Shown here piece after piece: positions 363-61,002 of a stretch of DNA of 61,166 nucleotides (positions within the stretch are counted from its first letter, which is position 1; each line of letters opens with the position of its first letter). Below the pieces are notes generated by a model. It was not told the DNA's origin and did no database searches. It saw only the letters and a list, made by a program, of their open reading frames with translations. The position numbers and the translations under genes are program-made. This DNA comes from Oscillospiraceae bacterium (GTDB taxonomy: Bacteria; Bacillota; Clostridia; Oscillospirales; WRJC01). The stretch covers positions 1 to 61,166 of the forward strand of contig WQYZ01000003.1 in assembly GCA_009780985.1 (NCBI GenBank), written 5' to 3'.

Positions 363-420
363 TTTTGCTGACTCCTTTATGATTTAATTAAAATTATTAT
401 AATATTTATAATTATGTGAT

Positions 421-830: not shown

Positions 831-843
831 CTCTGTCATTTCT

Positions 844-34443: not shown

Positions 34444-36000
34444 TTATTGTTGAATCTGGTCGAATTGAGCGATAGTTTTCTCCATAGCCGTAGTTATTTT
34501 CGCTTCGTTTTTGTCCCAGTACGACGCCATTGTATTTGTGCCTTTGTTTAACGAGTTGAAGAAATCGGTGACATTGCCCCAGTTGTAAACCTGAGCTATA
34601 TCATATAATCTGCTGGCAAAAATGAGGTCGAGCATTTCCTGCGATTCATTGTCGCGCGCAAATTTTGTTTTCAGCGATATATCGTAATATGCCGGAAGAA
34701 GAGTATATTGGCTTTCCGCAGTCAGGGCTTCGAGTATTATTCCGGTCCGGTCTTTATCCGTCACAGTGACGGGAATGGCGACGCTGCTTGTGCATCCCAC
34801 TTCGACGCTCGGATAATATCCGTCCTGCTGTTCATCGTATTTCGGCGGCGGAATTATCCCGAAATCAGTCGCCATATCGCGCAGAAGAGTTACCCTGTTC
34901 ATTCCCGCGTAATAAAACATTGCTCTGTTTGTGTTGAATACGACAAGCTGCATGCCGTCCCATACTGTATCGTTGGGATATTTTGACGCATAATCGTCGG
35001 CGTTTATCGTTATCTGTTTATCGGACTGTAACTGAAGTATTTTATCGCATATATCAACTGCGCGCTGGCTGAACATAGTAAGTTCGGGCTCGCCTGTCGA
35101 TTGATTGACTTTTGCTATATACTCCCCCGCTCCGTTGTAGAACGCCATCGCGTTTCTGTACTGGCTGACAAGCCCCCACTGATCTGTCTGGTCCATTACT
35201 CCGTCGCCGTTCAGGTCTTTTGCGACGGCTTTTATCATGTCGAGCATTTTACCCATAGTCCATGTGCCGTCTTTGACTAACTGATACGGGTCGTCAAGAT
35301 TATAGTCTTTCTGAACCTGTTTGTTGAACATAAGTATCCATGTCGCGTCCTTATCGGTTATAAGATAATTGCTGACTGTCGCGAACAATCTGCCGTCCAT
35401 TGTCAACTGTTCGGCGGCTTTCTGGTCCCACCACGGCTTGGTTAAATCAAGATACGGGAACGTTTTAAGGTCATATAAATATCCTCCGGTCATAAGCGTA
35501 GTTATTTGTGATAAACCATGGCACATGAGGTCAAACGCGTCGTCCCCGGCTTTTATGGATTTTGACGCTCTCGGTGTCAAATCCCCGTTTTCGGGAAGAT
35601 TCACGATTTTTATGTTGTATTTGTCTTCTATTGTCTTATTTCTCAGATAAACCGCGTCGTTTATAGGGTCTCCGTTTTCCTGTTCGGCATATATATCTTT
35701 TGCGTACCAGTGAACATTATACGACGGTCCCCTGCTTAAAATCCTGAACTCATATCCGTTGTAATCTTCCTGTGGCAACCCGGGGTCAATGCGGGCGACT
35801 GTTGTCGTCTGGTCGGATACTGTACTGTCAATGTTTGTCTCTCCTGAATTTGCGGTTGTTGTGTTTTCGGTATTGTCCGCATTTTTCGCGTCGCTATTGC
35901 TTTTCGCGCAACCCGAACTTATCCACGCGGAAAATATAATAATACACGCCAATAACAGAAATAATAAAATTGTATTGAGCTTTTTTATTTTTTTAACCAT
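34444..36000 (-). CDS. Extracellular solute-binding lipoprotein (sugar ABC-type), no adjacent permease
   Basis: Lipobox SSGC, LDLTKPWWD, DLNGDG, FGIIPPPKYDE, YYDISLK..ARD. Confidence 0.8.
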   Translation of the reverse strand: MVKKIKKLNTILLFLLLACIIIFSAWISSGCAKSNSDAKNADNTENTTTANSGETNIDSTVSDQTTTVARIDPGLPQEDYNGYEFRILSRGPSYNVHWYAKDIYAEQENGDPINDAVYLRNKTIEDKYNIKIVNLPENGDLTPRASKSIKAGDDAFDLMCHGLSQITTLMTGGYLYDLKTFPYLDLTKPWWDQKAAEQLTMDGRLFATVSNYLITDKDATWILMFNKQVQKDYNLDDPYQLVKDGTWTMGKMLDMIKAVAKDLNGDGVMDQTDQWGLVSQYRNAMAFYNGAGEYIAKVNQSTGEPELTMFSQRAVDICDKILQLQSDKQITINADDYASKYPNDTVWDGMQLVVFNTNRAMFYYAGMNRVTLLRDMATDFGIIPPPKYDEQQDGYYPSVEVGCTSSVAIPVTVTDKDRTGIILEALTAESQYTLLPAYYDISLKTKFARDNESQEMLDLIFASRLYDIAQVYNWGNVTDFFNSLNKGTNTMASYWDKNEAKITTAMEKTIAQFDQIQQ

Positions 36001-43682: not shown

Positions 43683-43757
43683 GGTGGGTGTGGCTCAGTT
43701 GGTTAGAGCGCCAGGTTGTGGCCCTGGATGTCGCCGGTTCAAATCCGGTCATTCACC
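43683..43757 (+). tRNA. tRNA-His (GTG)
   Basis: G-1 plus acceptor GTGGGTG/CATTCAC, D arm GCTC/GAGC, anticodon arm CCAGG-TTGTGGC-CCTGG, T loop GGTTCAAATCC, discriminator C; CCA not encoded. Confidence 0.95.
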
Positions 43758-43764
43758 CTATGGA

Positions 43765-43800
43765 AAAAATCCCGATATATTACGATATATCGGGATTTTT
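43765..43800. terminator. Bidirectional terminator after tRNA-His / SLH gene
   Basis: AAAAATCCCGATATAT-tacg-ATATATCGGGATTTTT. Confidence 0.8.
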
Positions 43801-43835
43801 GTTTTTATGCTGTGTTTACCTGTCTTAAATTATGT

Positions 43836-45101
43836 TTACTGTAAATCTACAGAAGCATTAAGTATATCCTCGAACGCCCAGTGATTTGCAGACAAGTCAT
43901 TATATAAACTCCGTAAACTGTCAGGAATTTTATCAAGGCTTGGTCTGCCAAGTATACGATTGACAATTACCACGCATTCGGCGCGCGTAATATTCGCCTC
44001 AGGTCTGAATGTATTGTCCGGATAGCCGGACAGCCATCCTTTGGCGTATGCTGATGCAATGCTTTCGTATGCCCAGTAGTCTTTTGAAATATCTGTGAAT
44101 GGTATAGTTGCGTCGTCTAAAATATCATAAAAACGTGATGCAATTACTACAAATTCTGCTCTTGTGATGGGTTCGTTGGCTCTGAATGTATCGTCCGCGT
44201 AGCCTCTCAGTATGCCTTTTGAAGCTAAATATGTCACCGCTTGCGCGTACCATTCGTTGCCGGTTATATCGCTGAATGGGTTGACAATAATATCATTTTT
44301 ACTGCCGTCTTTTACCAAACGGAAGAATATCATAGCAACTTCAGCGCGAGTAATCGCAATGTCCGGTTTTACGCTTCCGTCCCCGTAGCCGCTGATATAC
44401 TTTTTGCCTGTTTCAAATGGATTGCTATTATTTGTTATAATATTACCTAAAGCTTGCGGTACAGAATTATCTGGAATGTCTTTGGTTTCTTCTCCTGATG
44501 CCGTCGTTTCAGCTCCGTTGGTTCCTGTGCCGCCGTTGTTACCGCCGGTTCCGGTACCGCTGTAGTCAGGGTGAGGCGTAACAGGAGCAGGAGGAGCAGG
44601 TGTAACGTTAATCGCACCGTTCACGCCGTTCAATGGAAATGGATTTTCTATATCGTTGGCTGAAGCCGCCTGAGCGGTAACTGTTAATGATATTGTATCA
44701 GTCGTAACACCGTTCGCTATTTTGAAACTAAGAACAGCCAATTTGCCATTTACATTGCTATCTTTTAAACCGTCGTTAGACGCAGTAACTGTAACACTCC
44801 CTTGTTTATTCGCTACATCGGACTTAGTTGATACAAACGCTACTGTTTCTGCAAATACATCAAATTGTTGTGCACATCCTAAGTACGTTAATTTTGTATT
44901 GTCATAGCTAACATCAAATTCATATCCTGCGATACCTGTGTTACCCGATAATTCCACCGGCACGCTCACCGTGTCGCCTGCTTTACCTGTTACCGTACCT
45001 ACCGTTATTGTCGGGCTGGCGGCTAAAACCACCATAGGCAGCATACTTATCACCATCATAACTATAATAATCAGACAAAATGTTTTTATTAATTTTTTCA
45101 T
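43836..45101 (-). CDS. Cell-surface anchor: signal peptide, cohesin, P/T/G linker, three SLH repeats
   Basis: TITVGTVTGKAGDTVSVPV...DVSYDNTKLTY...NGAINV cohesin pattern; three GYxDxxxxP/A..ITRAE SLH motifs. Confidence 0.85.
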   Translation of the reverse strand: MKKLIKTFCLIIIVMMVISMLPMVVLAASPTITVGTVTGKAGDTVSVPVELSGNTGIAGYEFDVSYDNTKLTYLGCAQQFDVFAETVAFVSTKSDVANKQGSVTVTASNDGLKDSNVNGKLAVLSFKIANGVTTDTISLTVTAQAASANDIENPFPLNGVNGAINVTPAPPAPVTPHPDYSGTGTGGNNGGTGTNGAETTASGEETKDIPDNSVPQALGNIITNNSNPFETGKKYISGYGDGSVKPDIAITRAEVAMIFFRLVKDGSKNDIIVNPFSDITGNEWYAQAVTYLASKGILRGYADDTFRANEPITRAEFVVIASRFYDILDDATIPFTDISKDYWAYESIASAYAKGWLSGYPDNTFRPEANITRAECVVIVNRILGRPSLDKIPDSLRSLYNDLSANHWAFEDILNASVDLQ

Positions 45102-45150
45102 TGCATGTCCTCCGTTTTTTTATATTTTTTATTTTTTAACGTTTATAACA

Positions 45151-48100
45151 TTATTTTAACGAATATGCCGTAGTGAATTCCCTGAAAGCAAGCGTGTCAT
45201 CCTCAATGTCGCCTGTAACTCCCAATGCCAACTGCCGCGCCGCGCCAAGCTCATCAAGGTTCTTGTCGCCGTAATATCGGGAGAATATCATGAAATCCTT
45301 AAAATTCAAATCCCCGTCGCCGTTCAAATCAAACTTGACTACAACTGTTTTCGTGTCTTTATTATCGCCGTTCTCCAAAATAATTACCATTCCTGTGCCA
45401 AGCAGAGTATCCGGGTCTGTGATTTCATTGCCTTTACGGTCATATACTTTTATATTGTCGTGGTTATTCGCAAGTTCGTTCAGCAGGTCGCCGACTGTTG
45501 TTCCGTCTCCTGCTATAGAGCCGGTTATGAATCCGTTCTCAATATTGAAGTGCGACCCGCCTTTCAGGGTTATTCCCAACGGTTCATATATCGCCGTAAC
45601 AGTCAAGTCACCTTCGATGTCGCTGAAATCAGTTACCTTAGTGTTCGAATCAGTGAACCAGCCCGTGAATTTGTAACCTGGTACAGCCGGTGCCATGGGC
45701 GCAGTCGCAAATTCGCCGTACTTCACACTCTGTTCCTTTATCAAATTGCCGTCTTTATCGTTGAATATAACCGTATATGTGTTTTTATCGTATTGTGCTG
45801 TCACTGTAAGGTCTGATTTTATATTGCTGAAATCAGTGACTTTAGTGTTCAAATCAGTAAACCAACCTTTGAACGTATAACCTGTCCTCGTCGGATTTGT
45901 CGCCGGAGGCGTCGCTGACGTATTGTAGTCTACCATTTCACTTTTTAGCGTCGTACCATCCCAGTCTACGAATGTCACCTCGTAGCTGTTTATCTTATAT
46001 TGTGCCGTAACTGTGAGGTCGCCTTTGATATCTTCGAAAGAGTTGTCCCAACCTGTGAACGTGTAGCCTGTTACTGCCGGTGCTGTAGGCGCTGTTGCCG
46101 ATTCGCCGTATTTCACCGTCTGCGTATCGCCAATCGGGTTGCCGTCAAAGCCTATGAACGTAACCATGAAAGTAGGAACGGTTATTTTAATCCAACCGTC
46201 GCTTTTTGTGATGTCGGAAATCGGAACCTCGTCTGAACCAAGAAGAACGGAATCAAGCGATAAATCTACTTTAGCATATGTTACTGCGTCATCTTTTATT
46301 TTGAATTCAAGAGTAAACATAGTTCCGTCACCGGAGAAAACCGAAGAACCATTATCTGCAGTAACCCAAAACTTTCCGGCTGCATTTATCTCATTCAAAA
46401 AACCTGGCATAAACCTTCCGTCTCCGGCGGCAACGCTATCGGCAAATACGTCACTTTGCTCACAGCCTACATACTCTAATTTTGTATTGTCGAATGTTAT
46501 TTCGACTGTATATGTTACGATACCCGGGTTTTCCGTCAATGTAACCGGCACCTTTACCGTGTCGCCGGCTTTGCCTGTTGCCGTACCTACCGTTACTGTC
46601 GGATTATTTGTTGAAATCAGTTCCCACTCCGCCGTCAACTCTACGTCTGACGTAATCGGCGTGCTGAAATCGAACGCGGATCCCTCGTCGTCAGAATACC
46701 AATAGCAGAAATTGCAGCCGTCTTTAACTGGATCTGGCATTGGTCTGTCTACATAGTCGCCATTTGTCACTGGCACTGTGGTTGGATCGGTTCCATTGTC
46801 TGCGTCGAATGTAACGGTATAGATTATTGCCGGTACTTCTTCCCATTGTGCCGTCACGGTCGTGGGTTCGGTGATATTGCTGTAATCTCCAACCCAGCCA
46901 ATGAACGTGTAACCCGCTTTCGTCAGATTTGTCGGAGGCGTCGCCGTTTCGCCGTATGGAACGCTGTCAGTTCCGAGTACAGTAGTGCCGTCGCTGTCTA
47001 CAAATGTAACATTTATATTATACTGCGCTGTCACAGTTGTGGGTTCGATGATTTGGCTGAAATCTTCGGGGTCCCAGCCTGTGAACGTATAGCCTGTCCT
47101 CGTCGGATTTGTCACCGGAGGCGTCGCTGACGTATTGTAGTCTACCATTTCACTTTTTAGCGTCGTACCATCCCAGTCTACGAATGTCACTTCATAGCTG
47201 TCTATCTTATATTGTGCTATTATGGTGAGGTCGCCTTTGATATCTTCGAAAGAGTTGTCCCAACCTGTGAATGTATAACCTGTTCTCGTTGGATCACTCG
47301 GAGCTTTCGCATTGCCGCCTTCTGCCACGCTCTGCTGTTCGCCAATCTTATCGCCGTTCCAGTCTTGGAATATTACCGTGTAGTATGTCGTTACCGGAAC
47401 CGCCGTCCACTGTGCTATAAGCGTTACATCTGATGTGATCGCCACACCGAAATCAAACAACGTAGCTCCGCCGTAGCTCCAGCCGTCGAATGTGTATCCG
47501 TCTTTACTTGGGTCTGCGGGCTGTTTAGCCTTACCGCCGTCTGCCACTGTCTGACTGTCTGCCAGAGTTGTTGTGCCGTCGCTGTCGAAAAATGTTACTT
47601 TGTGGGTAACTGTAGGAGTTGTTCCGTCTGGAATAAACACAACGTCCCTTAAATAATTGTGACCGAGCGATACGGCTGGATATGTACCATATGCGGAGTA
47701 AACCCCTGTTTGCTTCGGATACGAAAGATTACTGCCATTATCTCCCGCACTTTCGGGATTGTTTGAGATCGCCGCATAATTCCCAGCCGCGTCGGTGGAA
47801 ACGGAAACGGTGTAGCTGACATCGGCTTTAACAGGCGTAGATGTTATTGGTAGGTATACCCAACCGTCATTGCCGTCAAAACTTACAGTGTCCTCGTAAA
47901 TTGCCTCACCAGTGCTGTTGTTGTATATTGCCACATGATGGTCTCCGGTTTCTTCCGCATACGCGAACACCCTAATATATGTTATCGTTCCGTCTACTGA
48001 TGGAGTGAATATTGTTCCCAGTTCACATGTTCCCGAGTTTGTGCATAGAATAATTCCGTCATCCGTGCTCAGATCGCCCCAAATTGTTTCGGCGTTGTCC

Positions 48101-51100
48101 GGTAGAACGAAGTCGCCGCTCGCTTTTACGGTTATTCTGACCGTATAGCTCGCTTCGTTCGTTCCGTCTGTCGCGGTGAACGTCACGGAATATATTCCGT
48201 GTTGTCCGACGTCAGGCGTCCAACCGAACTTCTGAGTATCAGAGTCAAAACTTGCGCCGCCAGGCAGATTAGCCGCAGAGTAAGTCAAGTCTCTGTCACT
48301 GACCGCGTGTACTGTGAAGCTGAGGCTGTTCCCCTCCGCTACGGTTTTATCTGCTATCGCGTCAAATATTGGAGTGTTATCCACCTCTGCCGCGTTGACC
48401 GTAACGTCAAAGCTCGTGGTTTTGGTTACTCCATTTTCGGTGTAGCTCACTGTCACAGTCTGAGTGCCTTCGGTATCGAGTTTTGAACCCTCAGCCGGAT
48501 TCGTTTTGTAGCCGCTGACTGCCTTGCTATCTTCGCTGCTGTAGGTCGCCGTTACCACCATACCTGTAAGGTCAAGGACATCGCCTACGGTATATTCTAT
48601 CGTTTTCGGCGGGGTTGTGACGGCTAACTTATCCAGTGTCACCATTGGCGGCTCTACGCCATCGGGAATGAAGACAACATCACGAAGGTAATTACAGCCG
48701 TATGTGTCCGTAGGGCGTGCCGTGAACGTTAAGTCTGTGTTAGCTACACCAAAATTATCTGGATAGTAAAGGCACCCGCCGTTGTTCCCACTGACCGAGG
48801 CATGTTGGATGGCTGGATAAGCCGTTGCGTCGTCCGTGCCAGTTGAAACAGAGACGGTGTAGTAGACGTCAGCGTCGATATGAAGCGGACTATCTAAATT
48901 ATAATACTCCCATTTATTTGCTCCGGTATAGTCAAACACTTCCGGTCCGAAGACTAGGTCCCCGTCATTGTTCCATATTGTGATTGTGTGCTCACCTGTT
49001 TCCCCTGGGATTCCGTATACCCTTACGGATGTTATGTTACCCGGTTCGGATGAATAGAACACAGTCCCTAAGTTATATGAAACGCCGTCTCCCTGGAATG
49101 CCCCTATGTCGGCTGTTTCATCGATATTGCCCCAGATGGTTTCCTCGCCGCCCTGCGGGACAACAGTTGCGGTTACGGTTATTGTTATTGTTTTGTTGCT
49201 GACCATTACCCCGTCGTCCGCCGTAAATTTTACGTTATACACACCGGACTGTCCGACGCTCGGCGTCCACTTGAATTCGCCTGTCTGCGCATTAAGAGTC
49301 GCGCCGTCGGGCAGCACATCCGCCGAATATGTAACCTGTCCGTTTTCGCTTGTTGCGAGTACGGTAAAACTGAGGCTTTCGCCTTCCTTCACGGTTTGAT
49401 CAGTCAAGTCAGAAAAGGTCGGAGCCTTGACCGCGCCGTCGTTCGGCACGAATACTACATCACGCAGATAGTTGTTATGATATTGATTATCCATGGGCTG
49501 CGTGCCTAAGTCGCCGTATACCCCGGCATATGCAGGATAAATGAGGTTCTTCCCATTGTTGCCCGCAGTTGCCGGCGAATTGTTGATCGACGCGTATAAA
49601 TACGGGTCACTCAATTGGGTGGAGACAGAGACGGTGTAGTAATGTCCGGCTTGAACCTGCACAGGTTCGGGTAATTCTATATAGACCCACTCGTTATCGC
49701 CCGTATATGTAGCAGTACCGCTGTAAATTTGCGTTCCGGGCACGAAAGCCGCGTCGCTTTCCCAAATGGATACGTTGTGAGTACCGGTTTCCTGCCCAGA
49801 GATATTCGCGTCGCCGTATACCCCACTGAACCCGAATATTTTGACGTGGGTTATCTCACCGTCAACGATCGGGGAAAACACCGTCCCAAGCTCGTACGCC
49901 CCGCCGTAACCCGCCGTTATGCCTTTTACGGAGGTACCCCAAATGGATTCGGAGTTATCCGGCAGGTTGTAAAAGCTTTTCACGGTTATCGTGATGGTCA
50001 CGCTGTCGAGGCTCAGCTTGTCGCTCGCGGTGAACGTTATGTTGTATACGCCGTATTGCCCGACACTCGGCGTCCACTTGAATTCGCCTGTCTGCGCGTT
50101 AAGGGTCGCGCTGTCTGGCAGTTTGTCCGCCGAAAAGGTTATCGGGACCAAAACCTCATTGCCGCCGTTATCCGCTGACAGCGTAAATCCTATCTGATCC
50201 TTTTCCGTTACGGTTATGGAATTCCCATCCACGTTGGACTGTATTGTCACCGCGGGGATGGCGTCGTTGGAATACTCAGCCGTAAATAAATCGCCGTCGT
50301 GCGCAGTGACGAACGCGTATCCGTTGCCTTTGACGGTTTCAACATCATAGCCGCTGGCCGGAACGCCATTTATGCTTTCCAGAATATGCCCATCATAAAA
50401 AGCTGGAATCATCGCGGTTAGGTTCCCGTAACCCTGACCCTGCGCTGGGGAAGAGACATTGAACGTCAGGACGCTCGTATTATTGTCCCAAGCTATGTTT
50501 TTGAAGCTTGCGCTGTCGCGCATGTTAGTGAAATTGTACATATCCCTGCCGCTGCAGATGGGGATGCCGTTGCTTTTAGAATAAGCCAATACTTGTACGG
50601 CTTCGCTCTTATAGCCGCTTCCGTCTCCGTTAAGCCAGCCTGCGGGATGGAAGTTGGCGGTCAGCCAGGCATAGTCCTCATTATTAAGGGCGTTGTCAAG
50701 CATTGTTTTATAATTTGCGGCTATAGTATAGTGGAAATATTCGTCCGGAAGCTGGGTGTCGTTCTGGTATATGTCCAGCACCTCGCCCTTGCTTGTGGAG
50801 AACTTCATGGGCATACCGCTTCCGTTCTCAAAGCCGGGGTTGCCGAGGTTCAGGAAGTCAAACACATTATAATAGTTGAAGTCCATCATAATGCCGTATT
50901 TCCGCTCTAACATTGCCTGAGCGGCGAACTCCGGCAATCCGTTTGAGTCTGTGCCGCACCATATCACACAGTGGTTGCGCACGGAAGTCGGTGACGGGCT
51001 GACACTGCCATATTTATTGTCGAAAATACTCTCAGCACTTGCGATAGTCGCGTCCGCAGACGCCCAAGACGGCTCAGATGCGTGCTCGAAATGGATCGCG

Positions 51101-52140
51101 AACTCATTACCTTCGTCAGTCCATGTCTTGATCTGCGCCGGCGAATCTATCATGTCGCTCACCCACGAATAAATGGATGCGTGACCGCCGTAACTCATAA
51201 CGGTATTGAATTCGTCCGCAAAATTTTGCTGCGCGCCATCCGAATCGCCCGTAAAGACAGTCATCGCCTTTTTACCGTCGGGGAAGTACCACAAGCGCGG
51301 CAAAGGCATCGTGGAGGTGTTCATCCATTCGATTATGTGAGACAGAAGCCGCATTTGCTCATCCGCCTGTGGTATTTCGACTTTTGTGTTGTCGTTGTAT
51401 GAACCGCCGTCTTTTTGGTACATTAAATCCCCCGCGCGGAGATAACCGTCATTGTTCGTATCCACACCTGCGTTGGCTGGATTCCCCTGCCTCGTATACA
51501 CGATGCTTTTGCATAGATCGAATGAAAACGCGGCTGTTCTGCCTCCGCCGTATTCATTCGCCGCGACTGCGGCACTGCCGGAATCTGTAACGCTGTTGTT
51601 ATATAAAGACGCTATTTTGCTGCCGGTTGTGAGTCCATATTTATCCGCGTCGCCATGGAATTTCATGGTTTCGGATATCAACCCCCGACCGATTTCAGTG
51701 GAAGTGTCAATTTTTATGTACCCTTCGGAAACTGCGCCGGATGTGCCTGAAATTCCGAATAGATTATAAAGCTGTGCGTCCGGCTGTATCCCGATTAAAT
51801 TTCCGCCGTCATTCACATATTGCTCAAGCATTGCGCTCTGCTCTGACGTGACTGATGTTTCTGTCAGAATAACTACGTCAAACTGATTGAGGTAATCTTC
51901 TGATAGATTATTTATATCTTCTGTTTCAAATTCATTGAATCCTTCTTCTTTTAATATCTCGCCCATATACGCGCCAAACGTGTTTGCAGAGTTGCTGTTT
52001 ACTACTAGAATAGGGTTTGATGAGCTTAGAGATGCCGAAGTATTTTCATCGGCTGCAAATATCGTAGTGGAAGGAAGAAGCCCGAATAACATACACACAA
52101 ATAATACAAAAGCCAATAATTTTCTAAATTGATTTTTCAT
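45151..52140 (-). CDS. 2329-aa secreted modular protein: GATase-like and deacetylase-like N-terminus, 3x DUF4082-like, Ig/cadherin-like repeats, InlB-B repeats, internal cohesin, C-terminal dockerin
   Basis: Signal peptide; TGDSD/HFEH/RNH/NFHP barrel motifs; three units ELGT.F...NYLRDVVF.P; LPDGATLN..TGEFKWTP; PTRTGYTFTGW repeats; cohesin at ~46181-46605; FDLNGDGDLNFKD EF-hand. Confidence 0.8.
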   Translation of the reverse strand: MKNQFRKLLAFVLFVCMLFGLLPSTTIFAADENTSASLSSSNPILVVNSNSANTFGAYMGEILKEEGFNEFETEDINNLSEDYLNQFDVVILTETSVTSEQSAMLEQYVNDGGNLIGIQPDAQLYNLFGISGTSGAVSEGYIKIDTSTEIGRGLISETMKFHGDADKYGLTTGSKIASLYNNSVTDSGSAAVAANEYGGGRTAAFSFDLCKSIVYTRQGNPANAGVDTNNDGYLRAGDLMYQKDGGSYNDNTKVEIPQADEQMRLLSHIIEWMNTSTMPLPRLWYFPDGKKAMTVFTGDSDGAQQNFADEFNTVMSYGGHASIYSWVSDMIDSPAQIKTWTDEGNEFAIHFEHASEPSWASADATIASAESIFDNKYGSVSPSPTSVRNHCVIWCGTDSNGLPEFAAQAMLERKYGIMMDFNYYNVFDFLNLGNPGFENGSGMPMKFSTSKGEVLDIYQNDTQLPDEYFHYTIAANYKTMLDNALNNEDYAWLTANFHPAGWLNGDGSGYKSEAVQVLAYSKSNGIPICSGRDMYNFTNMRDSASFKNIAWDNNTSVLTFNVSSPAQGQGYGNLTAMIPAFYDGHILESINGVPASGYDVETVKGNGYAFVTAHDGDLFTAEYSNDAIPAVTIQSNVDGNSITVTEKDQIGFTLSADNGGNEVLVPITFSADKLPDSATLNAQTGEFKWTPSVGQYGVYNITFTASDKLSLDSVTITITVKSFYNLPDNSESIWGTSVKGITAGYGGAYELGTVFSPIVDGEITHVKIFGFSGVYGDANISGQETGTHNVSIWESDAAFVPGTQIYSGTATYTGDNEWVYIELPEPVQVQAGHYYTVSVSTQLSDPYLYASINNSPATAGNNGKNLIYPAYAGVYGDLGTQPMDNQYHNNYLRDVVFVPNDGAVKAPTFSDLTDQTVKEGESLSFTVLATSENGQVTYSADVLPDGATLNAQTGEFKWTPSVGQSGVYNVKFTADDGVMVSNKTITITVTATVVPQGGEETIWGNIDETADIGAFQGDGVSYNLGTVFYSSEPGNITSVRVYGIPGETGEHTITIWNNDGDLVFGPEVFDYTGANKWEYYNLDSPLHIDADVYYTVSVSTGTDDATAYPAIQHASVSGNNGGCLYYPDNFGVANTDLTFTARPTDTYGCNYLRDVVFIPDGVEPPMVTLDKLAVTTPPKTIEYTVGDVLDLTGMVVTATYSSEDSKAVSGYKTNPAEGSKLDTEGTQTVTVSYTENGVTKTTSFDVTVNAAEVDNTPIFDAIADKTVAEGNSLSFTVHAVSDRDLTYSAANLPGGASFDSDTQKFGWTPDVGQHGIYSVTFTATDGTNEASYTVRITVKASGDFVLPDNAETIWGDLSTDDGIILCTNSGTCELGTIFTPSVDGTITYIRVFAYAEETGDHHVAIYNNSTGEAIYEDTVSFDGNDGWVYLPITSTPVKADVSYTVSVSTDAAGNYAAISNNPESAGDNGSNLSYPKQTGVYSAYGTYPAVSLGHNYLRDVVFIPDGTTPTVTHKVTFFDSDGTTTLADSQTVADGGKAKQPADPSKDGYTFDGWSYGGATLFDFGVAITSDVTLIAQWTAVPVTTYYTVIFQDWNGDKIGEQQSVAEGGNAKAPSDPTRTGYTFTGWDNSFEDIKGDLTIIAQYKIDSYEVTFVDWDGTTLKSEMVDYNTSATPPVTNPTRTGYTFTGWDPEDFSQIIEPTTVTAQYNINVTFVDSDGTTVLGTDSVPYGETATPPTNLTKAGYTFIGWVGDYSNITEPTTVTAQWEEVPAIIYTVTFDADNGTDPTTVPVTNGDYVDRPMPDPVKDGCNFCYWYSDDEGSAFDFSTPITSDVELTAEWELISTNNPTVTVGTATGKAGDTVKVPVTLTENPGIVTYTVEITFDNTKLEYVGCEQSDVFADSVAAGDGRFMPGFLNEINAAGKFWVTADNGSSVFSGDGTMFTLEFKIKDDAVTYAKVDLSLDSVLLGSDEVPISDITKSDGWIKITVPTFMVTFIGFDGNPIGDTQTVKYGESATAPTAPAVTGYTFTGWDNSFEDIKGDLTVTAQYKINSYEVTFVDWDGTTLKSEMVDYNTSATPPATNPTRTGYTFKGWFTDLNTKVTDFSNIKSDLTVTAQYDKNTYTVIFNDKDGNLIKEQSVKYGEFATAPMAPAVPGYKFTGWFTDSNTKVTDFSDIEGDLTVTAIYEPLGITLKGGSHFNIENGFITGSIAGDGTTVGDLLNELANNHDNIKVYDRKGNEITDPDTLLGTGMVIILENGDNKDTKTVVVKFDLNGDGDLNFKDFMIFSRYYGDKNLDELGAARQLALGVTGDIEDDTLAFREFTTAYSLK
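45871..47271. repeat. ~190-bp near-identical direct repeats (45871-46059 and 47083-47271) within the large gene
   Basis: Shared CCTGTCCTCGTCGGATTTGTC...GGCGTCGCTGACGTATTGTAGTCTACCATTTCACTTTTTAGCGTCGTACCATCCCAGTCTACGAATGTCAC...GATATCTTCGAAAGAGTTGTCCCAACCTGTGAA; offset 1212 bp. Confidence 0.9.
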
Positions 52141-52741
52141 AATACACCTTCTATTATTTTGATTATATATTGTTTTTATTTATGCCTATTCAATCTTTGA
52201 CATCCTTTAATTTTAACAATATTTTAAGAAACGTCCGTATTTTTTTATATCCAGTGTAATATGCGCACCTCGGAAATCTTAAATTTCCATATTTTTATAG
52301 ATTTAACGCTACCGGCAATCACCTTCTCTTCATTTCAGACTTATGATTTACATTTTAATATTCTTAAGTTTATTTTAATAAAAGCATTGTACCATAATCG
52401 TCAAAAAAATGCAAGCGATTTCTTAAAATTTCCTTAACTATACGAATAATTAAAAAATAATTCATAAAATTTATATCGATTTTGCAAAATTCATTCAAAA
52501 TAATGTCATATAACGTAAAAGTCGTGTTTGTAATATATTATTTTACTTTTATGCGGCATATCTTTGAAAAATAGATATTTTTAAATAAAAAGGCGATGAA
52601 ATATTTATAAAAGTCAATGGAATTTATTATTTTTATGTATAATTTTGTTTGAATTTAATCTGTTCATATAATTCCAATTTGTCATTAAGTTTATTTGTTC
52701 TGTAAAAACGGTTTAATTTTCCGTTTGAATTTAAGCAAAAT

Positions 52742-52781
52742 AAAAAAGCCCGTCATCGCCTATAACGGCAAAAGCGGACTT
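52742..52781 (-). terminator. Terminator after GH30-like gene
   Basis: Minus strand AAGTCCG..TGCC-N6-GGCG..CGGGCTT followed by T run. Confidence 0.55.
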
Positions 52782-52823
52782 CTTTATTTTTTTATTTTGC
52801 GGATAACATCGGTCTTTACGGAT

Positions 52824-55049
52824 CTATTGGCTGTTCTTCGTTTTAACTTTGTGTCGAAACCAAAAGAATATTAACGCCCCTATTGTTATAACTATAATTA
52901 CAGTTATTATAATTATTACTTCCGCCGGTATTTGTTTTTGAATATCAGAAGCAGTCGCAGTCAATATTTCTGTCTTCGTTATCTCACTCGCAGGATTTGT
53001 GTTTGTTACCGGTGTTTCTATGCCGGCGACGGCGTTTTTATCATTGTTGGCAGAATTGACAAAATCCGCATCGTTGGCAGAAGTGACAACGACAATGACG
53101 GTGTTAGTGGGAACTTCCACGACAATGCTGCCATTTTCAAGATTGCGAGGGGGCAAAACCTTCGGCTCGTAATTGTTCGGAGCGACTTTGCCGCCATTCA
53201 TCGAAATTTCTTCGTCAAAATAATATACCGTCGCCGATTTGCCGTTAAGATTATTTAAACGGTAATATCTGTCCGTCGTTTTCTTCGTATCAGCCAGTAA
53301 GACGATATCGGCATTGTCGTTTCTCCATGCGCACATGTCTATACGCTCGCCCATTGCCGTGTTTATCTCCGGGTCGTCCGTTTCAAGTAAAGCTACTTTG
53401 GAGCCGGGTACGGCATTTTTGTATATTATAGAGAGTAAGTTGTACTGCATACTCTTGTTTAACGTCGTGGTCCCGTTGCCTGACAGAAGCGTTTCCTGAT
53501 TGGGAACGTTTATTTCGTACCCGGACGCAAAGGCAGTCCACCAGAACCAGTCGTTTATGCGGGCATTTACCATGTTGGAACTGAGCACTTCGGCGAGATC
53601 CATGGTTTTGGAAAGCATTGTAGGACTCGGCAGCCCTTCACCGGTGCAAAATTCCGTCATCCATGCTTGTTTTTCAGGATACAGCTCCAATGCTGCGCGC
53701 CAGTTGCGCACATCATTGTCGCTGGTCCACCCCGGATGAACATAAGCGTGAACAGCGACTATTGGAATCGCCGAATTTAATTCGGGGTCGGCGGCGAATT
53801 GACTGAATTTATTGCCAAAGAATTTTATATTCCTCAGGAAAACGTCTCCGATGCCAATCAAGGGAACATCAGTATAACCGGCGGCATCAAGCGTTTTGCG
53901 CATAAGTTTTGCAACCCGTACATATTGTTCCGGCGTGTATAAGCACGACTGATAATCAGCGACATTTTCCGGTTCATTCTGCAAATCGAAAGCATATGGC
54001 TTGGGCAATCCCAAATCTTTAGTAAAGTAATCAAGACACTTCACGATGTAGTCGCAGTAGTCCTGTTCATTTTCGACTTTGAGCGAAGCGTCAGTTCCGT
54101 CGGCGTTCAGTCCGCTTATTGAATTATTTGTTTTAAATTCCGGCGGCGGCGTCCATACGCTTAACAGGTACTTCTTGATTCCATACTCGCAACCGCTTTT
54201 TATAGCGCTTGCAACCTGATTCAACCGGTCATAGTCGAGCGTTTTGTTCGGACCGCCGCATTCGCCGTATAATTCAATACGGTAATTCGTTATGCCCATG
54301 TCTTTAAATACGGCATCTTTAAGCAGCGTTCTGCCGTCTGTTCCCGAGCTGTCCGAACCGAAAAATACTCCCCAGTCGGTAATCTCCTGCTGCAGTTCTC
54401 CTGTAAGGGTAATATTGTATATATCAGGATTTACATACGGCTCTTGGGGAACTACAACAGTCTCGACAGTTTTGTAAGGCGGCGGTAAATTCGGGTCATT
54501 TGTCGCGGTAAGGGCGAAACCGGAACCCAACGCTTCCCATGCCTCGCCAAAATCTTTAGGCCACAAAACCTTTATGTATTTGGAATTTATCCCCGTTAAA
54601 GTATATATTCCGCGAACCCAGGCGGCGCCAAGATCCGTTGCGTCTTTAGTATAATGGTCAAATTCTGTCCAGGGACCGTCCGGATTGTCGGATACTTCAA
54701 AACTGAAATCAACATCGAAAGTAGGATGCTTGACGGCTTTCCATACCAACGCCGTTATTTTGTCGTCAGGATAAGCCGCGCCGGGATATAAAATCATACT
54801 GCTTTCGTCCGAAGCGTCGTAATTACCCGCGGGCTGGAAGCACTCTGTGTAATCGGAATCCGCATTCCAGTGTCCTGCCTGTACCTGATTGTATGAATAA
54901 ATATTTTGGTCATCCATACCGCTGGCATCGCTTGCGCTTATATGCGCCGTTTCTGCAATCTGAGTTGGCGTTTCAGCCGCAAGAGCCTGTGAAGTTAAAG
55001 GCGTCATCATCGCGAAAAATAGCAAAAAAGAAATCACCTTGCCTTTCAT
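52824..55049 (-). CDS. Secreted, C-terminally membrane-anchored clan GH-A glycoside hydrolase (GH30-like)
   Basis: SVWTPP, LQNEP (acid/base), AVHAY, AWMTE (nucleophile), WFWW; signal peptide and C-terminal TM helix. Confidence 0.75.
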   Translation of the reverse strand: MKGKVISFLLFFAMMTPLTSQALAAETPTQIAETAHISASDASGMDDQNIYSYNQVQAGHWNADSDYTECFQPAGNYDASDESSMILYPGAAYPDDKITALVWKAVKHPTFDVDFSFEVSDNPDGPWTEFDHYTKDATDLGAAWVRGIYTLTGINSKYIKVLWPKDFGEAWEALGSGFALTATNDPNLPPPYKTVETVVVPQEPYVNPDIYNITLTGELQQEITDWGVFFGSDSSGTDGRTLLKDAVFKDMGITNYRIELYGECGGPNKTLDYDRLNQVASAIKSGCEYGIKKYLLSVWTPPPEFKTNNSISGLNADGTDASLKVENEQDYCDYIVKCLDYFTKDLGLPKPYAFDLQNEPENVADYQSCLYTPEQYVRVAKLMRKTLDAAGYTDVPLIGIGDVFLRNIKFFGNKFSQFAADPELNSAIPIVAVHAYVHPGWTSDNDVRNWRAALELYPEKQAWMTEFCTGEGLPSPTMLSKTMDLAEVLSSNMVNARINDWFWWTAFASGYEINVPNQETLLSGNGTTTLNKSMQYNLLSIIYKNAVPGSKVALLETDDPEINTAMGERIDMCAWRNDNADIVLLADTKKTTDRYYRLNNLNGKSATVYYFDEEISMNGGKVAPNNYEPKVLPPRNLENGSIVVEVPTNTVIVVVTSANDADFVNSANNDKNAVAGIETPVTNTNPASEITKTEILTATASDIQKQIPAEVIIIITVIIVITIGALIFFWFRHKVKTKNSQ

Positions 55050-55376: not shown

Positions 55377-56939
55377 ATGAATAATACAGCAATATATCTT
55401 AGGCTTTCTTCGTCTGACGAGAACTACGGCGAAAGCAACAGCATCAAAAATCAGCGCGATTTACTGACGATGTTTGTCGCAAATCAGCCGGATTTACGCG
55501 AGACAAAAATCATAGAGGTATGCGACGATGGTTACAGCGGCACTAATTTTGACCGCCCCGGAGTGAAACGTCTGCTTGAACTCGTAAAAAACGGCGAAGT
55601 GAAGTGCATACTTGTCAAGGATTTTTCGCGTTTCGGCAGAAACTATATCGAAACCTGCGACTATATCGAGCAGATTTTCCCAAGCCTGGGAGTGCGGTTC
55701 ATCAGCGTGAACGACGGTTATGACAGTGACAAAACAGATATGTCGGCAGGCAATCTCAACGTCGCGTTTATGAATCTGATTCATGATTTATACGCCAAAG
55801 ATATATCCACAAAAATCAAAACCGCGCAAAGAGTCCGTTGGGAAAAAGGCGAAATATCAACCCCTTCCACGATTTTTGGCTATGCCAAATCACCTGACGA
55901 CAAGCATAAAATTGTTATTGATAAGCCTGCGGCGGATATAGTCAAACAGGTATTTAACATGGCGGCAAATGGTTACGGAACTGCGGAGATAGCGCGATTT
56001 TTGAACGCGAATAATATACCCACGCCGGGTAAATATAAAAAACGCGCCGATAAAGTTAATAACGACTCGTCAATATTTTGGACTAATAGTATGGTGCGTA
56101 AAATTATAACGGACGAGAAATATACAGGCAAGGCGATATTCGGTAAAACCCGCAGAAAAGCCGTCGGCAGCAGACAAATTCTTGAAGTGAACAGAAACGA
56201 GTGGATAATAAAAGAAAACGCCTTTGAAGCGATTATTACGGAAGATATTTTTACCCGGGCGCAGAAAAAAGATTCAAGAGAAAGATTACCCGTTCATAAA
56301 CAAAAAGAACAGCGCATAATATATGGGAAAGTCCGCTGTTATAACTGCGGGCGTCTCATGGACCGCCGGACTTATAAAAATCCCGTATATGTATGCGAAA
56401 CACCGAAATTCATCAATTCGCCGGGCTGTGTCCGCGGGCATACTTCAGAGAGAGCGGCTGCGCACTGCCTGTTTGAGATGGTACGAATAAGATTAGAAAT
56501 TTATTCAGATTCAGAAAATGACATATTGAAACGTAACGAAGCTGATTTATCAGAGAATAAACGCCGCCAAATATCGCTTAAAATACAAGAAACCCGGCGC
56601 TTGCTGCAGAAATTGTCGCAAAATCAAATATCGTTGTACGAGAGTTATCAGGATAAAAAAATAAGCCGCGAACAATATTCAACCGAACGCGAAACGTTCA
56701 ATTCGCAGATTGAAAGCCTCGAAAATCAGTTACAGTTGTTAAGATCCGAACTTGAACTGACTGCGCTTCCTAAATCCGCGCCGCCTGAACAAACTTATAT
56801 GCGGTCTGTGAACGGCACGGAACTATCGCGGAAAATGGTTGATTGCCTGATTGACGGCATTATCGCATACGGCGCAGACAGAATTAAGATTAACTGGAAA
56901 ACGTCTGATGATTTGACCCTCATTGAAAAAAAGCGGTAA
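55377..56939 (+). CDS. Large serine recombinase (resolvase, recombinase, Zn-ribbon, coiled coil)
   Basis: AIYLRLS (catalytic Ser), DDGYSGTNFDRPG, VKDFSRFGRN, FGY, YTG, CYNCG...C...C. Confidence 0.92.
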   Translation: MNNTAIYLRLSSSDENYGESNSIKNQRDLLTMFVANQPDLRETKIIEVCDDGYSGTNFDRPGVKRLLELVKNGEVKCILVKDFSRFGRNYIETCDYIEQIFPSLGVRFISVNDGYDSDKTDMSAGNLNVAFMNLIHDLYAKDISTKIKTAQRVRWEKGEISTPSTIFGYAKSPDDKHKIVIDKPAADIVKQVFNMAANGYGTAEIARFLNANNIPTPGKYKKRADKVNNDSSIFWTNSMVRKIITDEKYTGKAIFGKTRRKAVGSRQILEVNRNEWIIKENAFEAIITEDIFTRAQKKDSRERLPVHKQKEQRIIYGKVRCYNCGRLMDRRTYKNPVYVCETPKFINSPGCVRGHTSERAAAHCLFEMVRIRLEIYSDSENDILKRNEADLSENKRRQISLKIQETRRLLQKLSQNQISLYESYQDKKISREQYSTERETFNSQIESLENQLQLLRSELELTALPKSAPPEQTYMRSVNGTELSRKMVDCLIDGIIAYGADRIKINWKTSDDLTLIEKKR

Positions 56940-58896: not shown

Positions 58897-61002
58897 TTAT
58901 TTTATCCCCTGCGCCAATAAAACCATAAGCCTGTTTAAAACGGTCGCGGCTTCCGCTCTTGTAAGAGTTTTCGCGGGCATAAACATGCCGTTTGAACCTT
59001 GTAAAAGTCCTAAATTTGTGCAGGTCCTCACGTCGTTTGTATATACCGGATTTATGGAGTTCAAATCGGAATAGTTAAGCGCGGGCGTAATAAATTTTGA
59101 CGTGTCGATTCCCGCATATTCCGCGGCTCTCGCTATCATATACGCCATTTCCTCGCGCGTGACCGCTTTGTTCGGATTATAGTCAAGCCCCGTCGCATAT
59201 CCGTTAAGCCCCATTGTATCGCCGGTTTGAATGTCGTTATAAAACCAATCCGAAGATTTTACGTCGCTGTAAGTCTTTGCAGTTTTCGGCGCGGGCGCGT
59301 TATATATATTTGACAAAACCCTTGTCAGCATTGCGCAGAATTCCGCGCGCGTCAAAGTGCCGTCGGGTTGATAAGTTCCGTCCGTATAACCGTTTACTAT
59401 AAACGAGTTCGCGGCGTTTAATATATCGGTTTTTGCCCAATGATTTGATATGTCGCTGAAGCTCGCGTTTCTCTGCGCTATCCAGTATGTGACTGCGCTT
59501 CTCGGCAGTTTTATTTTTATTACGCCGCCGGATTTAACCTGAGGAATCGGGAAAGCCGGGCTGCTCGTTATAAATCTGTAACTGTCGTCTTTTACGGGAA
59601 CGCTTAAATAAACGTTGTCAGGGAATTTACCGTTCAAATAAGCGGAACCTACACTATTGCCCGATTTGTCGTATACGGTGAAAGCGATGAAGTACAGAAA
59701 CTGCTGAGACGTGTCCATTTTAACCGCGAGATTATAATCCCCGGTCAGATAATCGCTTTTCAAGCCGTTTGCATAACTGAACGGAACGTCCAAATATCCG
59801 CCCGCAGTGAAATTAAATCTGAAAACTCCGTTGTTATATTGTTTGCAGAGGTCGGACATTGTCTTTGCGTTTATCAGACAGGTATAAACTCCGGTTTTGA
59901 TATTGTAACTGTAAATCCCGTTGTTTATATTGCTTATATTGTCCTGAACGTCAAACTTATCGATAATTGCGCCGGTCGAGTCAATTACGGTGAAGTTTAT
60001 ATTCGGGGTTTTTACCGGAACTGCCGTATTTTTCGTCGAGAACGTTGTTATGCCTGTCGTCTGTCCGGCGATTGTAACGATGCACGACAAAGTTATGGTT
60101 ACATTATTTATCGTTATGTCAACCATATATCTTCCGGAGTAACCTTCTGAAGCATTGTTTATTACAAGAGTGTCTCCCGTAGCGTTTGATATTAAAGTGC
60201 CTTTGGAATACCATTGATATTGTACAGAAGAATTGTTTTTATCGCTTACGTCAACTGAAAGCTCCAAATCTATGCCCGCCGCAGCATATATATTTGACGG
60301 AACTTTATGAAAATTCCACTCCACTTTTCTGAAATTACTGAACACGGAACTGTCGTATCCCGCTGCGTCCGACGGGATTATAAACACGCAGTTTGACGGA
60401 ACCCCGGCAAACGCGCTGCTTACTGCATTGTAAGCTGCGCCGTTTGAATTGAACGCCACCACTGTTTTAAGTCCGGCGCAGTTTGCAAAGGCATTTTCGC
60501 TTATGCTTGTCAAATACTGCGGAAGCGCAACGCTGTCGAGAACGTAACAGTTTGAAAAAGCGTTCGCGCCGATTGTCTGCACATACGGGCTTATACTAAC
60601 GTTTAAAAGAGAGTAGCAGTTCGCAAACGCGCTGTCCCCTATCGCGGTTACGCTCATCGGAATAGCTATGCTCTGTAAACCTGCGCAATTCTGAAACGCT
60701 CCGTCGGGAATTTTATTGTCTTTGAATGTCGCGTCTGTGAGATTAAGAGATATAATATTCGGCAGAGTTTTTATAAAATCACAGTCGGCTTTTGTGATTT
60801 GTCCGTTTCCGGTTATAGTCAGCACATAAACGCCTGTGTCGTTTGAACCAAACGCGGTTTCAAAATCCGCGTCGGAGCTGCTGTAATTCACCGTAAGATA
60901 AGCCGACGCCGCCGATATGGCGATATTCATAACCGGCACAATCAGAAATACCGCAATCAACAGAGATAATGCTTTTTTTAATTTATTTTTCATATTTACC
61001 AT
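58897..61002 (-). CDS. Surface protein: BspA/TpLRR leucine-rich repeats, Ig-like domain, three SLH repeats
   Basis: AFxNCxxLxSIxIPxxVTxIG repeats, YQWY Ig motif, FSDISNHWA / LTRAE / VTREE SLH motifs. Confidence 0.85.
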   Translation of the reverse strand: MVNMKNKLKKALSLLIAVFLIVPVMNIAISAASAYLTVNYSSSDADFETAFGSNDTGVYVLTITGNGQITKADCDFIKTLPNIISLNLTDATFKDNKIPDGAFQNCAGLQSIAIPMSVTAIGDSAFANCYSLLNVSISPYVQTIGANAFSNCYVLDSVALPQYLTSISENAFANCAGLKTVVAFNSNGAAYNAVSSAFAGVPSNCVFIIPSDAAGYDSSVFSNFRKVEWNFHKVPSNIYAAAGIDLELSVDVSDKNNSSVQYQWYSKGTLISNATGDTLVINNASEGYSGRYMVDITINNVTITLSCIVTIAGQTTGITTFSTKNTAVPVKTPNINFTVIDSTGAIIDKFDVQDNISNINNGIYSYNIKTGVYTCLINAKTMSDLCKQYNNGVFRFNFTAGGYLDVPFSYANGLKSDYLTGDYNLAVKMDTSQQFLYFIAFTVYDKSGNSVGSAYLNGKFPDNVYLSVPVKDDSYRFITSSPAFPIPQVKSGGVIKIKLPRSAVTYWIAQRNASFSDISNHWAKTDILNAANSFIVNGYTDGTYQPDGTLTRAEFCAMLTRVLSNIYNAPAPKTAKTYSDVKSSDWFYNDIQTGDTMGLNGYATGLDYNPNKAVTREEMAYMIARAAEYAGIDTSKFITPALNYSDLNSINPVYTNDVRTCTNLGLLQGSNGMFMPAKTLTRAEAATVLNRLMVLLAQGIK

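Follow-up and report, generated by a model that had tools for sequence, protein, structure and literature searches.

Display of proteins on the bacterial cell surface through cohesin-dockerin pairs is a known principle. In the amylosome of Ruminococcus bromii, according to the available text of its description (PMC4611034), Amy4 (also named Sca1) combines GH13 with a cohesin and a C-terminal dockerin, and this dockerin recognizes the wall anchor Sca2 as well as the cohesin of Amy4 itself. The Limousia mucinolysome, as presented in the available text of PMC12997984, is another non-cellulosomal cohesin-dockerin system. Here we describe a gene pair on a 61,166-nt stretch of DNA from an Oscillospiraceae bacterium (assembly GCA_009780985.1, contig WQYZ01000003.1, positions 1 to 61,166; hereafter the window). 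One gene codes for a giant protein of 2329 amino acid residues (aa) that ends in an atypical dockerin, and the other for an anchor protein with a cohesin and three SLH repeats. An earlier note on this DNA had called this kind of system unusual, a view that the amylosome and mucinolysome already in print do not support. The principle is unchanged by the present case. In its details it combines a one-loop dockerin subtype, preceded by an X-like module, with an SLH anchor and with a cargo drawn from two families of unknown function.

The closest known system is Amy4/Sca2 of R. bromii. Going by the available text of PMC4611034, both systems pair an enzyme-bearing protein, in which one cohesin is followed by a C-terminal dockerin, with a separate wall-fixed protein carrying a single cohesin, and both are non-cellulosomal and come from Oscillospiraceae-type Clostridia. 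They differ in the anchor (SLH repeats here, a sortase motif in R. bromii), in the cargo (a ThuA/deacetylase-like module and DUF4082 here, GH13 and starch CBMs there) and in the dockerin, whose second loop is degenerate here and which follows an X-like module. In the present case the two genes lie side by side, and no more than three dockerins were found in this genome. Binding is established in R. bromii and predicted from sequence for the pair described here.

With the SLH-anchoring scaffoldins of Acetivibrio thermocellus and its relatives (OlpA, OlpC and SdbA types) the anchor shares its signal peptide, cohesin, linker and three SLH repeats. It differs from them in having no cellulosomal clients, its candidate partner being one adjacent giant non-cellulase protein, and from SdbA in that its cohesin resembles type I whereas that of SdbA is type II. 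Non-cellulosomal cohesin-dockerin complexes of toxins and glycosidases reportedly exist in Clostridium perfringens, and Peer et al. reportedly published a survey in 2009, both as cited in PMC3821032. Other non-cellulosomal systems, such as the mucinolysome (available text of PMC12997984), likewise extend cohesin-dockerin pairing beyond cellulose, and their scaffoldin dockerins are predicted to sit on a wall-anchored cohesin; they differ in that their dockerin enzymes are numerous and their wall anchors of sortase type or lacking, whereas here we see a private-looking pair and an SLH anchor.

In the available text of PMC11557425, an SLH-anchoring scaffoldin is a protein with at least one cohesin and an SLH domain, and a monovalent adaptor scaffoldin is one with one dockerin and a single cohesin. 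The anchor, with its cohesin at residues 31-166, three SLH repeats and a signal peptide, belongs to the former class. The giant protein, with exactly one cohesin and one dockerin, fits the latter and exceeds its definition by a large fused enzyme-like module and putative binding modules; it gives no sign of cohesin-type switching. Because it contains a cohesin, the cargo is itself an adaptor-type scaffoldin and could take a further partner or its own copy. The pair offers a minimal cohesin-dockerin case unrelated to cellulose, with a single plug, a socket on the wall and a spare one in the cargo.

Architecture of the giant protein and its anchor

Both genes are on the reverse strand, as are all features within them. 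The open reading frame (ORF) list and its translations place the giant gene (P0001) at 45151..52140 and the anchor gene (P0002; 421 aa) at 43836..45101, stop codons included, in agreement with the earlier note, which had placed the second gene 49 nt downstream of the first. The module map of the giant protein was drawn from Pfam scans of the whole protein and of excised segments. A signal peptide of the basic-hydrophobic-AxA type, read from the sequence (residues 1-29, MKNQFRK...TIFA/ADE; 52054..52140), is followed by an enzyme-like module (residues 30-650; 50191..52053) that is ThuA/GATase1-like and then polysaccharide-deacetylase-like. The next part comprises the Ig-like He_PIG domain 1 (residues 641-720; 49981..50220; 47 bits), DUF4082 (PF13313) module 1 (residues 743-892; 49465..49914; 49.3 bits against a cut-off of 28.4), He_PIG domain 2 (residues 907-990; 49171..49422), DUF4082 module 2 (residues 1015-1151; 48688..49098; 66.4 bits), a Big_3 Ig-like domain (residues 1177-1248; 48397..48612), He_PIG domain 3 (residues 1257-1338; 48127..48372) and DUF4082 module 3 (residues 1369-1496; 47653..48036; 58.6 bits).

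Five Flg_new (Listeria-Bacteroides) repeats (residues 1514-1837; 46630..47601) then lead to an internal cohesin (residues 1848-1986; 46183..46599), whose Pfam score was 56.9 bits when the whole protein was scanned and 64.1 bits for the excised segment. Three more Flg_new repeats (residues 1991-2183; 45592..46170), an X-like module of ~83 aa (residues 2188-2270; 45331..45579), conserved before the dockerin and matching no Pfam family, and the atypical dockerin (residues 2271-2329; 45154..45330) complete the protein. The totals of three DUF4082, three He_PIG, one Big_3, eight Flg_new and one cohesin bear out the three DUF4082-like modules and the adhesin-type repeats of the earlier note, as the Pfam scan does its statement that the cargo has no recognizable cellulase or CBM3. 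The internal cohesin and the X-like module had been absent from that note. The anchor cohesin has its closest paralogue in this internal cohesin (45% identity).

The anchor follows the order signal peptide, cohesin, linker and SLH repeats that had been described for it. Its N-terminus, read by eye, is a signal peptide of the same basic-hydrophobic-AxA type. The cohesin (residues 31-166; 44604..45011) matches Pfam with 60.4 bits against a cut-off of 24.1; in a genome-wide scan the cohesins of the anchor and the giant protein scored 60.7 and 63.6 bits. A linker rich in Pro, Gly and Thr, read from the sequence (residues 167-229; 44415..44603), separates it from the three SLH repeats (43977..44405), which reach 122.3 bits in three stretches (44334-44405, 44151-44279 and 43977-44102). 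SLH is the general wall anchor of this organism, with 49 matches in ~27 ORFs of the genome, and the anchor is the only one of these ORFs to bear a cohesin. A PF04230 pyruvyl-transferase-family gene is also present, a family that matches in 9 of 14 control genomes as well and is therefore weak evidence.

Cohesins have a nine-stranded beta-sandwich fold and bind a dockerin. When a profile of the anchor cohesin and 12 relatives was compared by sequence with solved structures, 41 cohesin-type chains matched at E<=0.01. The best were type I cohesins (CipA 3kcp_A, 3.5e-16; OlpC 4uyp_A, 1.2e-14; OlpA 3ul4_A, 2.5e-13), which as a group scored from 1e-16 to 1e-10. SdbA (2bm3_A) scored 1.3e-3 over 54 positions, and other type II cohesins also stood at ~1e-3, over the first strands. 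The anchor cohesin is therefore type I-like rather than of the SdbA type II, the pair is not of the CipA-SdbA type, and the X-like module and dockerin of the giant protein do not correspond to the type II X-dockerin of CipA.

A divergent dockerin with one predicted calcium site

Type I dockerins consist of two tandem segments of ~22 residues, each with a 12-residue Ca2+ loop, D-x-[ND]-x-D-G-x5-D, followed by a helix. In the giant protein, the loop of segment 1 (DLNGDGDLNFKD, residues 2271-2282) is canonical and fits this motif. The loop of segment 2 (GVTGDIEDDTLA, residues 2307-2318) is degenerate, lacking acidic or amide residues (Asp/Asn) at positions 1, 3 and 12, so that one intact loop is present instead of two.

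We based the dockerin assignment on relatives and on profile-to-profile comparison rather than on the Pfam score. When the last 142 aa were searched exhaustively with HMMER against 1.84 billion representatives, 344 proteins matched at E<=1e-3, mostly near their C-termini. Among the 150 relatives listed, 35 were scanned in Pfam, where Dockerin_1 was over its cut-off in 26, just under it in two and missing in seven. In an alignment of 22 sequences the Pfam dockerin starts exactly at the DLNGDG column and is preceded by the X-like module. Comparison with hhalign of three atypical sequences (the giant protein, P0122 and P0123) with 29 canonical X-dockerin fragments, a set that excludes these three, gave a probability of 99.6% and an E-value of 1e-23 over 133 columns spanning the X module and both dockerin halves. 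Searched against PDB, the X-dockerin family profile retrieved solved dockerins first (8x39, 2.7e-22; 2ccl_B, 6.8e-14), and the C-terminus as a single sequence matched the dockerin 2y3n_B best (1.3e-5), followed by generic EF-hand proteins. P0122 and P0123, at 47-54% identity, share the degenerate form of loop 2, and QLAL, D, AF, F and AYS are invariant in the second half of all three, where the helix positions after the loop are conserved.

Homology thus identifies the C-terminus as a divergent dockerin with one predicted intact Ca2+ site, related to units of X module and dockerin. The dockerin-type EF-hand of the earlier note stands as regards DLNGDGDLNFKD and its homology; it does not as regards the PF00404 cut-off and the second Ca2+ loop. 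With one intact loop the dockerin probably has a single binding mode, and a one-loop subtype bears on how dual and single binding modes evolved.

The plug and socket recur with a different cargo

Scanning metagenome contigs with the atypical X-dockerin yielded one further locus, L022. There, the nearest relative of the X-dockerin (53% identity) forms the C-terminus of an unrelated cargo of Cys-rich repeats and one Flg_new repeat, and 37 nt after it lies a 523-aa gene with a signal peptide, a cohesin, a linker and SLH. The cohesin of this gene is 52% identical to the anchor cohesin and its sister in a tree of 13 sequences (support 99/98), and the internal cohesin joins the two with support 82/83. 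In the alignment, the anchor and L022 cohesins are more alike in their central strands than either is to the internal cohesin. The pairing at L022 and the similar identities indicate that plug and socket diverged alike and stayed adjacent while the cargo changed. Judged from this one extra locus, the plug-socket cassette appears to travel together, and a cassette kept while its cargo is swapped would amount to a natural modular display system. The L022 cargo (1-2202, forward strand) is made of Cys-rich repeats of ~45 aa with 'NHVGGTYE' and 'GEMGIYC'-type motifs and matches no convincing Pfam family; P0123 has similar Cys-rich repeats.

A search of genome contigs with the atypical X-dockerin found no relative. 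Within the genome itself, a phmmer search of all ORFs of at least 60 aa with the C-terminal 165 aa returned only the giant protein. One related genome (G454) had neither a cohesin nor an X-dockerin match. A search with the whole anchor was swamped by SLH matches and is uninformative for the cohesin.

Arrangements of cohesin and dockerin were also counted at 28 distinct loci chosen solely by cohesin similarity. A dockerin ORF lies directly upstream of the cohesin ORF in seven, and both domains occur in one ORF in 12; these counts are a floor, most flanks being 1.5 kb, and the loci are related rather than independent. Among these loci is L033 (G120:C40, 617-8958, forward strand), a three-gene cluster in a high-GC Clostridia genome, where a gene for a cohesin and three SLH repeats likewise adjoins large Flg_new proteins with a cohesin and a C-terminal dockerin. 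It differs in its gene order, with the anchor gene leading, in its canonical dockerins, which lack an X module, and in its cargo of CHAP/CHB_HEX type; cohesin identity is only 27-34%. The cargo proteins there are a CHAP/Flg_new/CHB_HEX protein ending in cohesin and dockerin (1495 aa) and then a protein running from cohesin and FIVAR to a dockerin (741 aa); the two cargo cohesins are sister paralogues (support 100/98). In G017:C14 (L019/L010) a cohesin ORF of 499 aa and the start of an ORF of 2111 aa share 4 nt. The latter has an N-terminal dockerin-like match that was weak in one search and reached an E-value of 1.1e-9 with our own dockerin hidden Markov model (HMM); gene order is reversed relative to the pair described here.

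Few cohesins and dockerins in the genome

The genome is a draft bin of 4.9 Mb in 387 contigs, 87.7% complete with 6.2% contamination. Three cohesins score over the cut-off (the anchor, the internal cohesin and C369), all in proteins with a single cohesin. Three dockerins were found with the Pfam models and an HMM built from the X-dockerin relatives (the giant protein, C369 and C355), and none is on a glycoside hydrolase. CBM3 (CBM_3) has no match. GH48 has none either, which is uninformative because the control genomes were silent too, and the two GH9 matches are in ORFs absent from the dockerin searches. A cellulosome would comprise a multi-cohesin primary scaffoldin with CBM3 and many dockerin-bearing glycoside hydrolases active on lignocellulose. 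In this 87.7% complete genome the system is not a cellulosome, and the non-cellulosomal context proposed in the earlier note is supported. With genus mates of 2.0 and 2.6 Mb, the bin may be mixed or the genome may be much larger than theirs, and C369 and C355 may come from another organism.

The other dockerin and cohesin proteins deserve description. In C369 (loci L003/L005; 3-1788, reverse strand) the gene for a 332-aa protein, in which a canonical dockerin sits mid-chain alongside Big_2, directly precedes a gene, cut by the contig end, for a cohesin and Cu_amine_oxidN1, an anchoring type other than SLH. C369 is thus the second case in the genome of a dockerin gene directly followed by a cohesin-anchor gene. 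C355 (L058; 1-2877, reverse strand) codes for a 959-aa protein of Lipase_3 and CarboxypepD_reg whose canonical dockerin lies at the very end of the contig. Alone among the genome's dockerins it has no cohesin gene next to it, which makes this Lipase_3-dockerin protein a candidate client of the internal cohesin. A 22-bit cohesin match in C154 was rejected as a subtilase-RCC1 protein and a weak dockerin match in C87 as a BlaR1-type M56/alpha-beta hydrolase with an EF-hand. A regular expression for dockerin-like Ca2+ loops was dropped as a census tool, since it retrieved mostly solute-binding proteins of ~510 aa.

Cargo modules of unassigned function

Residues 31-650 of the giant protein match 1486 proteins at E<=1e-3. 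The best 120 of these are mostly stand-alone proteins of ~610 aa, 36-46% identical over more than 90% of the query; none of the 120 has a name, and precomputed Pfam domains are absent from most. By homology, the N-terminal ~620 aa belong to this uncharacterised family, with predicted ThuA-like and polysaccharide-deacetylase-like parts. ThuA falls marginally short on the giant protein itself (33.2 bits against a cut-off of 33.4; best stretch, residues 57-119), and the deacetylase-like part runs from residue ~300 onward. When 46 aligned family members were scanned singly at E<=0.1, ThuA was found in 34, Polysacc_deac_1 (PF01522) in 28, with a best E-value of 6.2e-6, and the GATase1-like Glyco_hydro_42M in 17.

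The deacetylase-like barrel seen in the earlier note is accordingly backed at the level of the family by the 28 PF01522 matches and by a weak CE4 resemblance. It does not extend to a Pfam match in the giant protein itself, on which PF01522 gave none at E<=0.1. Against PDB sequences the enzyme-family profile had eight weak matches, five of them of CE4 type (deacetylases and one acetyl-xylan esterase; best E-value 0.057), and the module as a single sequence had no match. Catalytic motifs of CE4 are the Asp-Asp of TFDD and the H-[ST]-x-x-H metal site. The invariant residues of the family (D269, E316, H320, N359, H360 and H468 in the numbering of the 620-aa query) do not match these canonical motifs, and an esterase- or deacetylase-type activity is a reasoned guess.

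For DUF4082, comparison with PDB sequences gave chance-level matches only, so that no solved relative was recognized by sequence, and the family is scarcely mentioned in the literature. Its position in the protein suggests a putative glycan-binding module. In the closest longer relatives of the enzyme-like module, P0272 and P0273, a dockerin follows the module directly, and in P0334 and P0355 DUF4082 follows it. Both fusions of the giant protein therefore recur separately elsewhere, and the cargo unites a ~610-aa family of more than 1000 relatives with a DUF4082 that is joined to it in other proteins too. DNA of the locus is present in sequencing runs labelled termite gut metagenome, which together with the surface-display setting suggests an extracellular glycan as substrate.

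Proposed mode of display and alternatives

We propose that the two genes are a unit that displays a protein non-covalently on the cell surface. The three SLH repeats of the anchor would bind a secondary cell-wall polymer, and the flexible linker would hold the cohesin off the wall. The giant protein (~250 kDa) would be secreted via the Sec pathway, and its atypical dockerin would plug into the anchor cohesin, presumably in a Ca2+-dependent manner, tethering the giant protein to the wall. The long stalk of Ig-like and Flg_new domains would then push the enzyme-like and DUF4082 modules outward. The internal cohesin would be a further socket, taking either the dockerin of a second copy, which would give head-to-tail chains as in Amy4 of R. 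bromii, or another dockerin protein of the genome such as the Lipase_3-dockerin protein of C355; the two other dockerin proteins could use either socket. Docking of the giant protein on the anchor cohesin by its C-terminal dockerin is, in our judgement, probable. The earlier note had spoken of a dedicated plug-and-socket pair. The cohesin-SLH protein and the divergent X-dockerin are real and recur in L022, whereas 'dedicated' says too much for a cargo with its own cohesin in a genome with two other dockerin proteins.

Several observations weigh against docking on the anchor. Dockerin_1 (PF00404) stays below its 22.9-bit cut-off, reaching 13.7 bits when the last 159 aa are scanned and 16.5 bits when the scan is confined to the last 79 aa; the match covers profile positions 26-55 only, half of the model, and a scan of the whole protein gave no match at E<=0.1. 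The degenerate second Ca2+ loop might mean that the module is impaired. The internal cohesin could be the real partner or an additional one. As a draft bin, the genome may be missing partners or including foreign contigs in the census. Co-conservation was found at a single extra locus. Conservation of the pair in relatives, proposed as a check in the earlier note, extends to L022 and not to the same-genus or class genomes searched. Close relatives of the anchor cohesin were missing from 61 related genomes, the two same-genus genomes having none at all, and from 399 genomes of the class, where near-full-length matches were 28-39% identical. The cohesin alignment found none in one genome each of 185,579 species either; of the eight loci matched there, two cover the whole query at 31-32% identity and the rest ~45 residues only. 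Among 5.8 billion clusters, a search of proteins of 231-737 aa at a strict E<=1e-10 returned only the anchor cohesin itself.

The internal cohesin invites the view that the giant protein assembles with itself in the first place. Its dockerin would bind mainly the internal cohesin, between copies as chains or sheets or within one molecule, and the anchor cohesin would be only the base of a chain or would bind other dockerin proteins such as the Lipase_3 protein of C355. The close kinship of the two cohesins (45% identity, grouping at 82/83) speaks for this, as do Amy4, which recognizes its own dockerin (available text of PMC4611034), and the frequent presence of cohesin and dockerin in one ORF (12 of the 28 loci). 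However, L022 keeps the same dockerin type beside an anchor of cohesin and SLH, no cohesin occurs in the 733 aa visible of its cargo, an ORF cut at the 5' end, and the central strands tie the anchor and L022 cohesins more closely to each other than to the internal one. We therefore consider predominant self-binding rather unlikely; docking to the anchor and self-binding are not mutually exclusive. If both occurred, the single-mode dockerin could bind the anchor as well as the cohesin of other copies, and a self-polymerising surface fibre would extend away from the wall as head-to-tail chains of the 250-kDa enzyme/adhesin, its enzyme-like and DUF4082 modules representing new carbohydrate-esterase-type and carbohydrate-binding families that act on a glycan of the termite gut. 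We offer this picture tentatively and hold it, as a whole, to be unlikely.

The doubts about the dockerin could also be taken to mean that the plug has decayed, leaving a remnant that binds no cohesin, a giant protein that is released or held otherwise, and an adjacency that is historical. The Dockerin_1 score under its cut-off, the degenerate second loop and the generic EF-hand proteins that follow a single dockerin in the PDB matches speak for such decay. Conservation of the degenerate form at 47-54% identity in P0122 and P0123, with invariant positions in the second half, argues for selection instead, and the L022 module is still paired with a co-diverged anchor, so we think decay very unlikely. 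That the pair is only the visible part of a bigger complex for polysaccharide degradation, akin to a cellulosome, amylosome or mucinolysome, with further dockerin enzymes in the unassembled part of the genome, seems to us similarly improbable. The genome is incomplete (87.7%, in 387 contigs), C355 ends inside its dockerin so that more genes may follow, P0272 and P0273 carry a dockerin directly on the enzyme-like module, and the giant gene has a GH30/GH59-like gene upstream. Yet Pfam and the X-dockerin HMM agree on three cohesins and three dockerins only, no dockerin is on a glycoside hydrolase, CBM3 is without matches, and the two GH9 matches are in ORFs outside the dockerin searches.

Transcription unit and locus setting

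The giant and anchor genes look like one operon, because the 49-nt spacer between them (45102..45150) contains no terminator-like site, whereas a strong hairpin follows the anchor gene. This hairpin (43765..43800), just 3' of the anchor gene, is palindromic, with 16 pairs and an A run and a T run on its flanks, and is likely the terminator of the two-gene unit. The spacer contains a GGAGG ribosome-binding site. Upstream of the giant gene lie 683 nt of AT-rich DNA (52141..52823, reverse strand), the presumed promoter region, and a terminator-like hairpin of the neighbouring upstream gene (52750-52768), a layout that is also operon-like. Among the public runs listed as containing the locus there is no RNA run.

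Two public DNA runs, assembled with another program, gave contigs that span the whole stretch with no differences. One of these contigs (2240 nt) runs across 43700-45932 and joins the anchor gene through the spacer to the 3' end of the giant gene; the two runs may be the source of the present assembly, so that the agreement is not independent support. Two direct repeats of 300 nt (45862-46161 and 47074-47373; 82% identical), which encode Flg_new repeats, bracket the internal cohesin. A misassembly at these repeats was discounted, as copies that are 82% identical are too divergent to collapse. Between them, the depth of the other assembler is 4-5.5 as opposed to 7-9, with a loose end at 46068; strain variation between the repeats may account for this.

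The display genes and a gene for a membrane-anchored GH30/GH59-like protein (52824-55049, reverse strand) are flanked by tRNA-His (43684-43758, forward strand) and a large serine recombinase gene (55377-56939, forward strand). The G+C content of the giant gene is 0.486 as opposed to 0.405 in the genome, and neither the cohesin nor the GH30/GH59-like gene was found in two same-genus genomes. The segment from tRNA-His to the recombinase gene may be an acquired island. The neighbouring HtpG is 79% identical to its counterparts in the same-genus genomes; beyond it, no window gene on the examined side was found in those two genomes, which neither proves nor excludes an insertion.

Elsewhere in the window, all on the reverse strand, a 193-aa ORF at 36059-36640 matches the aminoglycoside 2''-adenylyltransferase family (PF10706, 60.9 bits) and has a G+C content of 0.297, far below that of its neighbours. 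The ORF at 58897-61002 codes for a 701-aa BspA-type LRR_5 protein with three SLH repeats, a direct SLH fusion in the same neighbourhood as the display genes. An extracellular solute-binding protein of the SBP_bac_1 type is encoded at 34444-36000. It is the window's member of a set of more than 60 ORFs of ~500-530 aa in the genome that carry, by regular expression, an EF-hand-like loop near residue 255, which suggests a very large expansion of binding proteins for sugar uptake.

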